DNA from: a virus
Taxonomy: Monodnaviria; Loebvirae; Hofneiviricota; Faserviricetes; Tubulavirales; Inoviridae
Strand: one strand, 5' to 3'
IMG/VR virus record: IMGVR_UViG_2531839409_000002
DNA: 9,661 bases
Shown here: positions 1 to 3,000 of the stretch, one piece after another
Position numbering within the stretch: the first letter of the stretch is position 1
Layout of the letters: each line of letters begins with the position of its first letter
Program-made: the position numbers

Positions 1-3000
1 ATGATTTTGAATCACTGTCGATAGTAGCCAGTTGACGGCCAGTGTCAACGATTCCCGCCAGATTCTGCCATCCTTACCATTGGTGCGCATAATGTGCGAC
101 TCGTTATGTTGAAAAGGCCGCTGCGAAAATGGCCTCCGCAGCGGCCTCTTTAGCATAACGTCATTGTGCGAACCAATTAATTATTTCTTGTCTAATATAG
201 TACTGCTTATATTAGAATTCTTAGCTGTAAAAAGCATATCTGCTTCTTGGTATATTTCACCTGAACCACCACTAAAGTTAAACTCGATGTTTAGGTCATT
301 ATAAGTAATGCTTGGAGAGTATTTTCTGTTTATTATAATATAGCCAACTGAATTTGCAGGAACTTCAACCCTTTCTTTCGGTTTTTCCATAAGATATCCA
401 TTATCATTAACAAATTCCACATTGTATTTCTTATACACCCTTATTTCTTCTTCTTCTCTTTTCTTTTCATCTTTATAATCAAATGTATCAACATGTTCGG
501 AAATATATTGAAAGTTTTTATATATTCTCCATCCGCCTGAAACTTTCAGTGCTTCTGATGTTTTATTAATTATTCTAAATTTGAACATTATTTGATTTTT
601 TTCTATCTTGGCATCTATTATTTCAATAGGGTATTCATTCGCTCTTAGATTGTAATTTTCAGTTATCAGTCCATTACCTATAGGATTAATCGAAAGTCCA
701 GAATTGTACATATTGTTATAAATCATGTAGTTATATGCTTTCAATGGGCCCGCGAGAGGGTTGTCTTCTGTTTGGATACTGATGACCATATAACTGAAAA
801 ATGCAGCAAAAATAGCACCGCCTAAAATAAAAGAACCTGCACTCGGTGGCACTGAGTCTTTTGAAAGGTATGTTTTCCCGTCAGTATCTTCTGATCTTAT
901 GGAAGGCATGGTACTTTTATCAAGAACTCTTGTTCCTTCAATCAAGAGCACCATGGATATTTTTTTATTTGCTAATATTCTATCTATCTTCACAAAAGAA
1001 CCTTCGGTAGTTGCATCATGATCACTTGCAATTACAGTACAAGACATACCGTTTGGGACTTTTATTTCTACATTTTTTTCTTTATCCTTACCTTTATTAA
1101 ATACTGATGCATTTATTACTATTGCATTGTCAGATATTGAGGTTTTACTCAAGGAGTTCCAACAGGATAAGTAAAGTTGTCTTTTCCTAAATATAGATAA
1201 AAACTTATTGAGGACTAATGCCACAAAAAAAGAAGTAACTACTTTCAATGTATCAGTAATCAAGTCCGGCATCTTTTTTCTCATTTTACTTAAAATCCAG
1301 TGTTTTAACTGATCAAAGATGGTCAGATAAAATGTAAAAATTTAGTATTTGAATATTACCCTAGTTAACCTAGGGTAATATTATATCAATAATATGAATT
1401 TCTTCGGTGCCACCAATAAAGCAGACCGTATCCGACGATAAGAATTCCAAAAAACATCAGAGACATTCCCCAGCCAGTTCCGTACCACGAAACCATATCA
1501 TCGAAAACCAACCCACCCATTTCACGTACTCCGGCAGCTTCCTTAAGAATTGGTTTGAATACCGGAATCAGAAGGGCGATCGCCAGTGGGGCACCCCAGC
1601 GAACAAGACCTGTTTCCATTTTGATCCCGAAAAAGATCCCCGCACCGACAACAAGCAACCAGACTATCAGGCCAGGCGCAGTTTCCAGTGCTGTTTGCCA
1701 TTCAACATCGAAAGTTTTCATTAACCAGGCAACAACTGCCAGACAGAAAGCAAATACGCCCACGACAACCAATTCAACGCCGCTTGTTTCGTTATTTCTA
1801 CTCATCATTTTGATCCTTTTTCATTGTTCAAAATTCGCACAATAAAGAACGTGCAGTGTTGGTAATACTGCACGTTTGTCTCATTCCTGAGACTGTTAAT
1901 CCTTTTACTCTTCTCCAGACACCGCTTTTTTCATAAACATTTTAGTACTGTAAGTGTATGAACTTAAGGCAGAAACCTGCCTTGCGAGTGCCAGAATATC
2001 TTGTTTTTCCAGTGTCCTGATGTTCCACACGATGAAATTATGTGCGTTAGTGGTTTCTTCATCAGTATATCCATCCGCAGAAGTGATTAGCTTCCGCTCG
2101 GTAGCTTCTTCTTTAACATCAAGAGCATAGCCATAAGCTAAGGTGTTTAAGTCTGCACCCGTAATTTTAGCTATCTGAATGATGTCACTGAATTTAGGTT
2201 CAGTTTTGCCGGACGCTATCCTGACCAGCGTACTCACGCTAATGCCAGTCTTCTCGGCCAGTTCTTCATAAGTCGAGTGTTCCAGAATTACCTTTTTGAT
2301 ACGTTCTGCTCTCTGTTTGTCCGCCATAACTTCATGCTCATTGTTGCCCATCTACTTGGCTCCATCTTAACAGTGGTTTTTCAATAGTTAGATTTGATGC
2401 TCATTTTTGACAATTTAAACATTGCAAATGTATTGACTGTCAGATCTGAGCATATTACATTGTGACCATTCAATCTGCTCACAAATGACTATTGACACAT
2501 ATTTTGATGGGTGTGACTACTTATGATCGACTGGTTTACCGGAATCCTGCCTTGCACACACCGACCGTTACCGGCTGGTAGTGTCGTCAGCGTCGATGCT
2601 GACGGTGCAGTGGAGTGGGAAACAGTAAAACGGTTGACCGTTCGCGGTTCGCATGAGTCCACAATGAAAGTAAGGTCTGTTGGATCTGATGGTGAAGGTC
2701 GGGCAACACATCTCTACATTGACGGTAATCCATCAAAGTTTTTGCAAGGTCACTCTGTTATCGGTTCCGACGATTTGCAAGGGTTGGTGTTAACAGCTTA
2801 CGCCAGAATATTGGCATTACTGCATATTCCTCATGATCTACCATCCTATCGGCAGGTCATGGAAGGGCAATTTAAGATCTCGCGCATCGATATCAATTAC
2901 ATGTATTCATTGTCAACATTAGAAAATGTCCGCGCATGGTTATATGCCGCAGAATTTAAAGCTAAAACTCGCCACGGTCGCGCCTGTGGTAAAGGTGGCA

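Follow-up and report, generated by a model that had tools for sequence, protein, structure and literature searches.

The exact palindrome at positions 1352 to 1382 of the 9,661-nt stretch of DNA analysed here (the window) lies at the edge of a variable cargo cassette and is linked to the cargo gene, not to the phage repressor. The window comprises a single unit of a CUS-1/YpfPhi-like filamentous E. coli prophage integrating at dif. The reading that we favour, albeit tentatively, is that the palindrome may be a transcript-boundary hairpin borne by the cassette, namely a diverged copy of hairpin 1 of a three-hairpin element of If1-type inoviruses, overlapped by a unique match to an extended -10 promoter and standing outside the immunity circuit. 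In this sense, it is probably a fairly ordinary feature, one more hairpin at a gene boundary.

Results

The palindrome is made up of two 13-nt arms, AATATTACCCTAG (1352-1364, plus strand) and CTAGGGTAATATT (1370-1382, minus strand), which match exactly around the 5-nt centre TTAAC, just as the initial annotation had described them, and it gives the identical hairpin from either strand. Among the perfect hairpins of the window, it is the longest. In dinucleotide-preserving shuffles of the whole window, arms of at least 13 nt with a loop of at most 12 nt appeared in 1 of 300 cases; when the AT-rich region 150-1400 was shuffled 1000 times, no such hairpin was seen, the longest arm being 11 nt. 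In other words, the exact 13+13 palindrome is real and rarer than chance would have it. The predicted folding energy of the hairpin is -17.2 kcal/mol for RNA of the minus strand, -15.7 kcal/mol for RNA of the plus strand and about -10.5 kcal/mol for DNA, and the 141-nt junction around it folds with z = -3.5 relative to shuffles. Inside the palindrome, hairpin 1 (ACC....GGU) of the inovirus element aligns to the minus-strand core stem-loop ACCCUAG-GUUAA-CUAGGGU (1358-1376), which has four G-C pairs in its stem. An Rfam search with E values up to 1 gave no match in the window or in seven related loci. Judged by eye, the sequence fits neither a dif/Xer-like site nor the ends of an IS or a MITE, nor a site for IHF, FNR, ArgR or MqsA.

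The gap in which the palindrome lies measures 101 nt and runs from the stop codon (TGA, 1388-1386, minus strand) of a gene for a 140-aa membrane protein (1386-1808, minus strand; phrog_4174) to the ATG at 1284 of a 367-aa gene (181-1284, minus strand; phrog_17621), whose RefSeq start is at 1272; the palindrome begins 3 nt past the stop codon. The initial annotation had placed it in a short gap between two cargo genes, from where it could influence the AT-rich 367-aa gene. Both the position and the possible influence are upheld and the 367-aa gene is indeed cargo, but the 140-aa gene is part of the conserved backbone and is kept in all relatives of the phage; its product has no Pfam or PADLOC match. 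The 148-aa helix-turn-helix repressor is encoded at 1905-2351 (minus strand; Pfam HTH_3, phrog_3557).

What is more, the junction contains a consensus match to an extended -10 promoter, TGATATAAT (TGnTATAAT; 1380-1388, minus strand); its TGA doubles as the 140-aa gene's stop codon, and it shares its final three bases with the outer end of the palindrome arm. With both strands scanned, TGNTATAAT occurs a single time in the window; the chance of finding it on the minus strand is approximately 0.01, as estimated from shuffles of 1285-1405, while the chance expectation for such extended -10 matches is about 0.7 per window. Going by the consensus match, the site may act as a promoter of the cargo gene. 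The idea that this match is a promoter inherited from the TGATATnAT motif of the related loci L009-L011 is weakened by the fact that, in those loci, the motif lies next to an ISNCY transposase gene, and also by the fact that the bases TTGAT of the match are backbone sequence here.

The 367-aa gene sits in a variable cargo cassette (179-1384, minus strand) that is some 1.2 kb long, has a GC content of about 30% and carries the palindrome at its upstream edge. GC content rises stepwise at about 1385, and homology with other cargo variants ends at 1376-1384 on one side (variants compared: UTI89, B1-56, WL297, ERP001, K-15KW01 and IMG/VR variants) and at about 178 on the other. At one locus (L050), the same gene end, TATTATTGAT, is followed by a different cassette. 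For this slot, there are at least 10 alternative cargo cassettes, the AT-rich 367-aa gene being one of them. Its product, a member of a small family, is predicted to have two membrane helices and two beta-sandwich domains; it has no Pfam or PADLOC match, and a structure search with its AlphaFold2 model (pLDDT 80.6) returned generic beta-sandwich folds only. Pfam, PADLOC, the AlphaFold2 model and the structure search revealed no DNA-binding domain in the cassette. Other long-leader cassettes carry a hairpin at the same spot, with that of the UTI89 type reading AAACCGUGG-GAAA-CCACGGUUU, and the L044/L048 cassette types carry the full three-hairpin element there. Several cassettes of the same slot, widespread ones, have no hairpin at the palindrome position.

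Of 5426 E. coli genomes, 17 contain the palindrome, each time together with the 367-aa gene, and no second copy of it exists in any of the 5426. Carriers include the strains SCU-101 and TUM14759, the latter with the 9565-bp circular form. The palindrome is invariant among its carriers, and one substitution is seen 17 nt away from it. Note that the carriers are 98-100% identical, and therefore the palindrome itself yields no covariation evidence, nor is its invariance a proof of selection. A 43-53-nt query matched only the same phage in 72,556 plasmids and the 5426 E. coli genomes, and the exact 31-mer is absent from IMG/VR. When the core arms were combined with a variable loop and searched in one genome per species (100,044 in all), 24 matches were obtained in unrelated taxa, which is approximately the chance level, and none in Enterobacteria. 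A metagenome search with a 19-mer gave four matches to the same phage and two unrelated ones, and no donor lineage with the full three-hairpin element.

According to the initial annotation, the palindrome could be bound by the 148-aa repressor or a host factor, and several lines of evidence, including its single-copy status, argue against it. Namely, a search of the window for the half-site gave no other match with up to two mismatches and chance-level matches only with three. The repressor/gII control region (2340-2530) contains ATGCTCA/TGAGCAT repeats instead of the half-site, and the candidate repressor operators, ATGCTCA...TGAGCAT at 2397-2453 between the repressor gene and gII, are unlike the palindrome. 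In addition, the identical repressor, WP_000527682.1, is present in B1-56 and UTI89, which carry other cargo and no palindrome, and strain 1434 retains the palindrome with a different regulator gene; neither two 82-aa ORFs nor the small regulator of strain 1434 have a Pfam match. Since the palindrome is tied to the cargo, is kept with another regulator and has no second half-site, its reading as a repressor operator is unsupported. The alternative suggestion of an RNA hairpin attenuator survives as far as the RNA hairpin is concerned, but not as a classical attenuator: the fold of the 141-nt junction predicts no alternative pairing of the palindrome with the ribosome-binding region, and there is no U-tract past the stem, the tails being CAAAUACU on the minus strand and AUAUCAAU on the plus strand, with the terminator scan silent.

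A strong hairpin is found 3' of every gene of the leftward operon. Past the repressor gene, there are two (1848-1893, minus strand), which constitute the backbone's own intercistronic structure: GTCTCA-GGAA-TGAGAC at 1878-1893, and ACGTGCAG...CTGCACGT at 1848-1876 with a U-rich run after it. Past the cargo gene, beside the dif-like site, a GC-rich 11-bp hairpin followed by UUUUCAAC (115-147, minus strand) is likely the terminator of the operon. The leftward region gave no megablast match against deposited phages.

The three-hairpin element itself is conserved in the 'major intergenic region' of If1 (NC_001954, 5052-5111, minus strand) and in about 30 If1-type inoviruses. In 25 sequences, five of the seven pairs of hairpin 1 change on both sides, and in the three-helix, 17-pair structure 91.8% of the cells pair, as compared to 27-45% when the partner columns are slid, a level of pairing reached by none of 500 shuffles. 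The element, which is widely conserved in inoviruses and uncatalogued, has no Rfam match. The counts of G-U and A-C pairs in it (12 vs 14) are uninformative as to the working strand and as to RNA or DNA. When the structural-gene strand is scored, hairpin 1 of If1-type phages comes out as an intrinsic terminator (e.g. TACCGTGGTTTCCCACGGTA + TTTTTATTTT), and 13 of the 25 copies of the element have at least 5 T among the first 8 nt past it. Non-phage copies of the element (L009, L011) have a decayed hairpin 1.

The best match of a covariance model in the window is the palindrome (1388-1335, minus strand), where both strand and position are as expected, with 11.9 bits and an E value of 0.46 (96 kb searched), a score that is non-significant alone, and any strong hairpin with A-rich flanks would score somewhat in this model. 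The three-hairpin model also gives a weak match, of 8.8 bits, at 1830-1906. In multiple and pairwise alignments, the palindrome is in register with the hairpin 1 that precedes the nearest homologue of the cargo gene; the pairwise alignment has a 71-nt gap in place of hairpins 2 and 3, whose sequence-conserved core (GTTCGGGTGTCACAGAACCCCGAAC, CCGCTTCGCGG) finds no match in the window within three mismatches. Both the If1 hairpin 1 and the palindrome come 0-20 nt after a gene's stop codon within the leftward regulatory/accessory operon, on the same strand, and they share a 7-bp stem core and the closing ACC...GGU followed by AA(A/U)(G/A)UU(C). They differ in the loop (GUUAA in the palindrome, GAAA in If1-type hairpin 1), and the palindrome, with its 13 perfect pairs, is 4-6 pairs longer in the stem than the family-consensus hairpin 1, has no T-run on the viral strand and belongs with a different Rep subtype. 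In particular, the element tracks If1-type Rep, which the window phage does not have; its Rep is of the canonical Phage_CRI type and, beyond the C-terminal domain, has no detectable similarity to If1/L085 Rep. Going by alignment and position, the palindrome may well be homologous to hairpin 1.

Discussion

How could such a hairpin work? In the reading favoured here, a copy of hairpin 1, by now diverged and lengthened, would have arrived with the 367-aa gene by recombination into the slot 3' of the 140-aa gene, the remaining two hairpins of the element having been lost, and would act on transcripts, not as a protein-binding site. Namely, in read-through RNA of the repressor/140-aa operon, a stem-loop would form 3 nt past the stop codon, where it could provide the 140-aa message with a 3' exonuclease barrier or a pause site, and with a weak terminator at best. 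An extended -10 promoter of its own, at 1388-1380, would drive the cargo gene, whose transcripts would begin inside the upstream arm and would consequently be free of the hairpin. That said, 13 perfect pairs exceed the needs of an RNA boundary hairpin, and the perfect symmetry is unaccounted for by this reading.

Such a role has its parallels. Being stable, devoid of a U-tract and placed directly past a stop codon inside an operon, the palindrome is like the intercistronic stem-loops that stabilise the upstream message, as the REP sequences between malE and malF reportedly do (Newbury and coworkers are said to have described this in 1987), although the palindrome is single-copy, unlike the dispersed REP repeat family. 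With Rho-independent terminators it shares the location at a gene end, the stable G+C-containing stem-loop (13 bp, -17.2 kcal/mol) and the 4 G-C core pairs, but not the U-tract, which it lacks on either strand.

It is conceivable, if somewhat unlikely, that the palindrome does nothing at all, and is a functionless relic of the donor's hairpin 1, left behind after recombination of the cargo gene and perfected either accidentally or through template-switch correction of a quasi-palindrome. The loss of hairpins 2 and 3 would agree with this, as would the absence of the T-rich tail that 13 of the 25 element copies have, the widespread cassettes of the same slot that do without a hairpin, and the near-identity of the carriers. 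Yet, hairpin 1 decayed in L009 and L011, while the palindrome is perfect and longer than the consensus, and a perfect 13-bp stem is rare by chance. Alternatively, the palindrome could still serve, as hairpin 1 would have done ancestrally, as a terminator or roadblock on the plus (viral) strand, halting read-around from the structural operon or antisense RNA of the cargo before the 140-aa and repressor genes. The terminator-like score and T-rich tails of If1-type hairpin 1, the ability of the palindrome to fold on both strands and the promoter-like sites at 592, 861 and 1305 on the plus strand, inside the cargo antisense, are consistent with this, but the tail that follows the palindrome, ATATCAAT for the full stem or AATATTAT for the core stem, has no U-tract and the scan is silent, and we consider such a role unlikely.

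A DNA operator for a dimeric protein, be it a host factor or the 148-aa repressor, which would repress the 367-aa gene over its -10/+1 region, strikes us as equally doubtful. The perfect dyad symmetry argues for it, and the palindrome overlaps the last three bases of the sole extended -10 match and spans the expected start, a classical position for repression. In symmetry and in the overlap with a promoter-like site, it indeed resembles the repressor operators of temperate phages (CTXphi RstR, lambda-type); unlike them, it is single, lies away from the repressor/replication promoter, is unlinked to the repressor allele and has arms that are perfect over 13 bp. Natural operators are seldom perfect across 13+13 bp, which counts against this reading, as do the lack of a second half-site in the phage, the different repeat at the repressor control region, the absence of the palindrome with an identical repressor and its presence with a different regulator, the lack of other copies in the E. 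coli genomes, plasmids and viral contigs searched, the chance-level matches of the core across species, and a cassette that encodes no DNA-binding domain.

Very unlikely, in our view, is a signal in single-stranded viral DNA, serving packaging, complementary-strand priming or, as a hairpin recombination site, cassette exchange. The related element does have, on the viral strand, d(GCGAAGC), a mini-hairpin characteristic of the sites at which single-strand replication starts, the G4 origin among them (PMC13037366). In addition, the packaging signals of Xanthomonas inoviruses, short hairpins whose stem contains CCG(C/T)G and whose loop is T/C (bioRxiv 10.1101/2023.12.30.573655), resemble hairpin 1 (ACCGTGG-TTTC-CCACGGT), and the palindrome stands exactly at the recombination junction. 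Against this, sister phages that share the backbone and Rep are without the palindrome, and therefore it cannot be an essential packaging or origin signal; its stem is AT-rich (ACCCTAG plus AT-rich extensions) with a TTAAC loop, and does not match the Xanthomonas consensus of a GC-rich 7-8-bp stem, GGX(A/-)CCG(C/T)G, with conserved T and C in the loop; moreover, the element tracks a type of Rep that is absent from the window phage, and no recombinase is linked to the palindrome. A more specific version, in which the palindrome or hairpin 1 would be an attC-like boundary signal in single-stranded DNA for cassette exchange between filamentous phages, perhaps by host enzymes, seems highly improbable. 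Integron attC sites are imperfect palindromes with R and L boxes, a GTTRRRY core and a linked integrase; the palindrome does not fit this description, being perfect over its 31 bp, and the phage has no integrase gene.

The slot corresponds to the variable segment adjacent to attL in YpfPhi and CUS-1, of the same phage family, which holds YPO2271-2272 in the former and orf1/orf1a in the latter (PMC4266046), in both cases unrelated genes of unknown function beside the dif junction, as here; the 367-aa cargo differs from both. That paper describes no hairpin, with 'hairpin' and 'palindrom' having 0 occurrences in it. The three-hairpin element, for its part, may be a cis-acting site for replication, priming or packaging, and it merits a study of its own. 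By itself, the palindrome is of little importance. Of greater use is its context: the palindrome gives the precise upstream limit of the swappable cargo slot that dif-integrating filamentous prophages of pathogenic E. coli (CUS-1/YpfPhi family) possess, and an understanding of the insulation of the cargo from the immunity operon, or of its coupling to it, would reveal when the cargo genes are expressed in lysogens.

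Results

The palindrome at 1352-1382, AATATTACCCTAG-TTAAC-CTAGGGTAATATT, is genuine and not a random occurrence. Its 13-nt arms match perfectly, confirming the exact inverted repeat described in the initial annotation, and it is the longest perfect hairpin within the window; shuffling the whole window 300 times with dinucleotides preserved gave arms of at least 13 nt once, and 1000 shuffles confined to the AT-rich stretch 150-1400 never did. The folding energy is -17.2 kcal/mol for the minus-strand RNA and about -10.5 kcal/mol for DNA, and the whole junction is more stably folded than 200 out of 200 shuffles (z = -3.5).

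Judged by its ORFs and family matches, the window is a filamentous phage, and it belongs to the CUS-1/YpfPhi family. Namely, the plus strand carries gII (Phage_CRI) and the genes for a single-strand DNA-binding protein, coat proteins, a Zot-like pI and a secretin, and the minus strand holds a leftward operon of three genes, encoding a 148-aa HTH repressor, a 140-aa membrane protein and a 367-aa protein. The window has a period of 9566 bases (1-95 are identical to 9567-9661), i.e., one phage unit with a 95-base overlap. It is 100% identical to a prophage beside hipA/dif in E. coli SCU-101 and matches a circular 9565-bp record from strain TUM14759 (NZ_CP128883), presumably the replicative form. 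A dif-like site, GGTGCGCATAATGTGCGACTCGTTATGTTGAAA, lies within 82-160, and a 24-nt inverted repeat (102-125 / 137-160) comes after it, such that the TTATGTTGAAA arm has an inverted partner around a GC-rich terminator hairpin. Bases 1-81 are phage sequence and not host hipA flank; hipA beside the SCU-101 prophage is annotated as a truncated pseudogene with the N-terminal domain only (2621-2941 of the SCU-101 chromosomal locus, adjoining window position 1), and is intact in B1-56, UTI89 and WL297.

The palindrome had been placed between two cargo genes. It does lie in the gap between the 140-aa and 367-aa genes, both on the minus strand, and the latter is cargo, but the former is part of the backbone. 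In particular, there is a GC step at about 1385, from ~27-30% to ~50%, and in relatives with other cargo (UTI89, B1-56, WL297, ERP001, K-15KW01 and 22 IMG/VR contigs) homology ends at 1376-1384 beside the palindrome and at about 178 towards dif. The 140-aa gene is followed by at least a dozen different sequences, counting an empty slot, and the occupants are unrelated, for example an ECs_2282 zinc-binding protein accompanied by a partner gene, a member of the STM4504/CBY_0614 family and, in UTI89, a 369-aa protein. The GC step, the homology limits and the varied occupants together identify the 140-aa gene as backbone and the 367-aa gene as one exchangeable cassette (~179-1384). The cargo slot runs from the 140-aa gene to the dif-side hairpin (179-1384 in the window, with the equivalent slot in comparison loci L002-L008 and L036-L057), and its junctions are exact to a few bases at either side. 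Since one relative, L050, has the gene end TATTATTGAT in common with the window and diverges thereafter, the junction can be placed at TTGAT/ATAAT. The 140-aa gene stops with TGA at 1388-1386, the palindrome begins 3 nt later as the first feature of the 367-aa cassette, and the cargo gene starts at 1284 (1272 in RefSeq). Different members of the CUS-1/YpfPhi family hold unrelated genes of unknown function in the attL-adjacent segment (PMC4266046).

No hairpin is present in cassettes whose cargo starts within ~30 nt of the 140-aa stop codon, and cassettes with long leaders open with one. The UTI89-type hairpin is AAACCGTGG-GAAA-CCACGGTTT, and the types in loci L044 and L048 have a longer conserved sequence, ...CCGCGG-GAAA-CCACGG-TAAAGTTCGGGTGTCACAGAACCCCGAACCGC..GCGG, also found upstream of 367-aa homologues in other contexts (L009-L011). 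Searching with its core retrieved about 30 inovirus contigs, and the sequence is likewise present in Alteromonas phage phiAFP1, a CTX-associated Vibrio cholerae record and phage If1, where it lies in the annotated 'major intergenic region'. This three-hairpin element spans ~57 nt (2893-2949 in L054, 5581-5637 in L078, 3428-3485 in L044, 2975-3037 in L098, and 5052-5111 on the minus strand of If1, NC_001954). In hairpin 1 the stem is 7 bp long and the loop usually GAAA; its sequence varies with pairing kept, 5 of 7 pairs being altered on both sides. Hairpins 2 (GTTCGGG-TGTCACAGAAC-CCCGAAC) and 3 (CCGCTTCGCGG) are almost invariant. Over all three helices, 91.8% of cells pair, as compared with 27-45% in slid controls, and none of 500 shuffles scored as high. 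A leftward gene always ends 0-20 nt ahead of the element; it is usually the regulator, of which there are several unrelated types. It co-occurs with an If1-type Rep, to which the Rep of the window is only distantly related, and has no match in Rfam. It is also found directly behind an ISNCY transposase gene on Klebsiella IncF plasmids.

Hairpin 1 and its subsequent T-run are flagged as terminator-like on the structural-gene (viral) strand, with a T-rich tail in 13 of 25 distinct copies. On the same strand hairpin 3 reads CCGCGAAGCGG and contains d(GCGAAGC), an unusually stable mini-hairpin known from sites where single-strand replication starts, the G4 origin among them (PMC13037366). Moreover, short packaging-signal hairpins mapped in Xanthomonas inoviruses resemble hairpin 1 (bioRxiv 10.1101/2023.12.30.573655). 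Possible roles for the element are complementary-strand priming, an origin or packaging function, and termination.

Several side observations can be added. In If1, the 'major intergenic region' holds an unannotated leftward ORF of 63-67 aa (MATPKRTTMAIVAERKLKLERLAID..., ~4900-5050, minus strand) that ends 13 nt ahead of the element, and ORF348 (6040-7086), annotated as 'homologous to eryA', matches Pfam OrfB_IS605 and Cas12f1-like TNB and is therefore TnpB-like. For the 367-aa product (gene at 181-1284, minus strand), prediction gives two membrane helices and a pair of beta-sandwich domains, in the order TM helix, beta-sandwich, TM helix, helices, beta-sandwich. Its family is small (21 database clusters, from Enterobacter, Proteus, Providencia, Morganella, Pectobacterium and Pseudomonas), with invariant motifs including RxRQLY and NxGKxKEK; in Morganella, too, the gene lies within the leftward operon of an inovirus prophage, and the family recurs at L094 2501-3670 and in L009-L011. 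Another conserved motif, CCTGAGACTACCCCGTAGTACAGCACGGGGGTTTT, is a hairpin with a T-run behind it (2400-2450 in L094, 2385-2425 in L092, ~700 in L089). In Morganella and Proteus it lies upstream of genes of the 367-aa family, and in L089 it lies downstream of the three-hairpin element.

Discussion

Is the palindrome related to hairpin 1? The best match of the three-hairpin covariance model in the window is the palindrome itself (1388-1335, minus strand; 11.9 bits, E 0.46 with 96 kb searched), on the expected strand and immediately after the stop codon; the UTI89-type hairpin scores 16.9 bits (E 0.026). In the alignments, ACC-CUAG-GUUAA-CUAG-GGU-AAUAUUC is in register with ACC-GUGG-GAAA-CCAC-GGU-AAAGUUC. 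The hairpin 2 and 3 core is absent from the window, and pairwise alignment with L009, which encodes the closest cargo-protein homologue (76% identity), has a 71-nt gap at these two hairpins. From these alignments, the palindrome is probably, if not provably, a diverged copy of hairpin 1 brought in with the cargo gene. It could then be a functionless recombination relic, which we consider rather unlikely. Hairpin 1 has decayed in the non-phage copies of the element (L009, L011), while the stem here has no mismatch and exceeds the family consensus by 4-6 pairs, which favours its maintenance in the phage.

The initial annotation offered an operator for the phage repressor or a host factor, or an RNA attenuator. 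A half-site search through the rest of the phage found no second copy. The divergent control region between the repressor gene and gII carries another repeat, ATGCTCA...TGAGCAT, within a 27-nt imperfect inverted repeat (ATGCTCATTTTTGACAA... / ...TGTCAGATCTGAGCAT, 2397-2453), with a third TGCTCA-N5-TGAC copy at 2476-2500; these are likely the true operators of the 148-aa repressor. What is more, the repressor (WP_000527682.1) is identical in the B1-56 and UTI89 phages, both lacking the palindrome, and strain 1434 has the palindrome and cargo gene with a different small regulator. With no further half-site, a differing control-region repeat and a repressor-independent distribution, the repressor-operator reading is not supported. 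A host factor is unlikely too, as the palindrome is confined to this phage and cargo: of 5426 complete E. coli genomes, 17 have it, in every case within this phage and together with the 367-aa gene; among plasmids it occurs only in the circular form of this phage, and it occurs in no viral contigs; related metagenome matches are the same phage. The core arms with any 1-9-nt loop gave only chance-level matches in unrelated taxa across genomes of 100,044 species. The cassette encodes no DNA-binding protein, and an operator for some protein, for all the perfect symmetry of the arms, seems improbable to us.

As for attenuation, the RNA hairpin is stable, but no competing pairing that involves the start region is predicted, so that it is not a classical attenuator. 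Neither strand has a U-tract after the stem, and efficient intrinsic termination is not expected; a weak terminator of viral-strand or antisense transcripts, like that flagged at hairpin 1, is similarly improbable. A signal acting in single-stranded DNA, as the packaging hairpins would suggest, appears the least probable of all.

We tentatively regard a transcript-boundary hairpin as the most likely mechanism, given a hairpin after each leftward gene, a promoter match, no U-tract and no alternative pairing. Strong hairpins follow the repressor gene (1878-1893 and 1848-1876), the 140-aa gene (1352-1382) and the cargo gene (115-147, followed by UUUU). Read along the minus strand, TTGATATAAT, the stop codon together with the bases after it, is a perfect extended -10 motif, TGnTATAAT (1388-1380), unique on both strands of the window and with a chance of about 0.01 of matching at the junction. 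A start site 6-9 nt downstream would fall within the upstream arm, and transcripts of this candidate cargo promoter would consequently lack the hairpin. Read-through RNA of the repressor/140-aa operon would form it 3 nt past the stop codon. Such a boundary hairpin would give the backbone message 3'-end protection or a pause, and would insulate a cargo gene having its own promoter.

The pair after the repressor gene deserves separate mention. On the viral strand, 1878-1893 reads GTCTCA-TTCC-TGAGAC, with a loop of T and C only, and the next hairpin within 1848-1893 has a 9-10-bp stem, an 11-nt loop and then a U-rich run. The layout recalls that of hairpins 1 and 2 in the If1-type element (a weak model match, 8.8 bits). 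All backbone variants keep it, and the pair is a candidate for this phage's own cis-acting site.

We would class the palindrome as another hairpin at a gene boundary, linked to a mobile cargo cassette. More interesting than the palindrome are two by-products of its analysis, the cargo slot with its precise borders and the conserved three-hairpin element of inoviruses, which is absent from Rfam.
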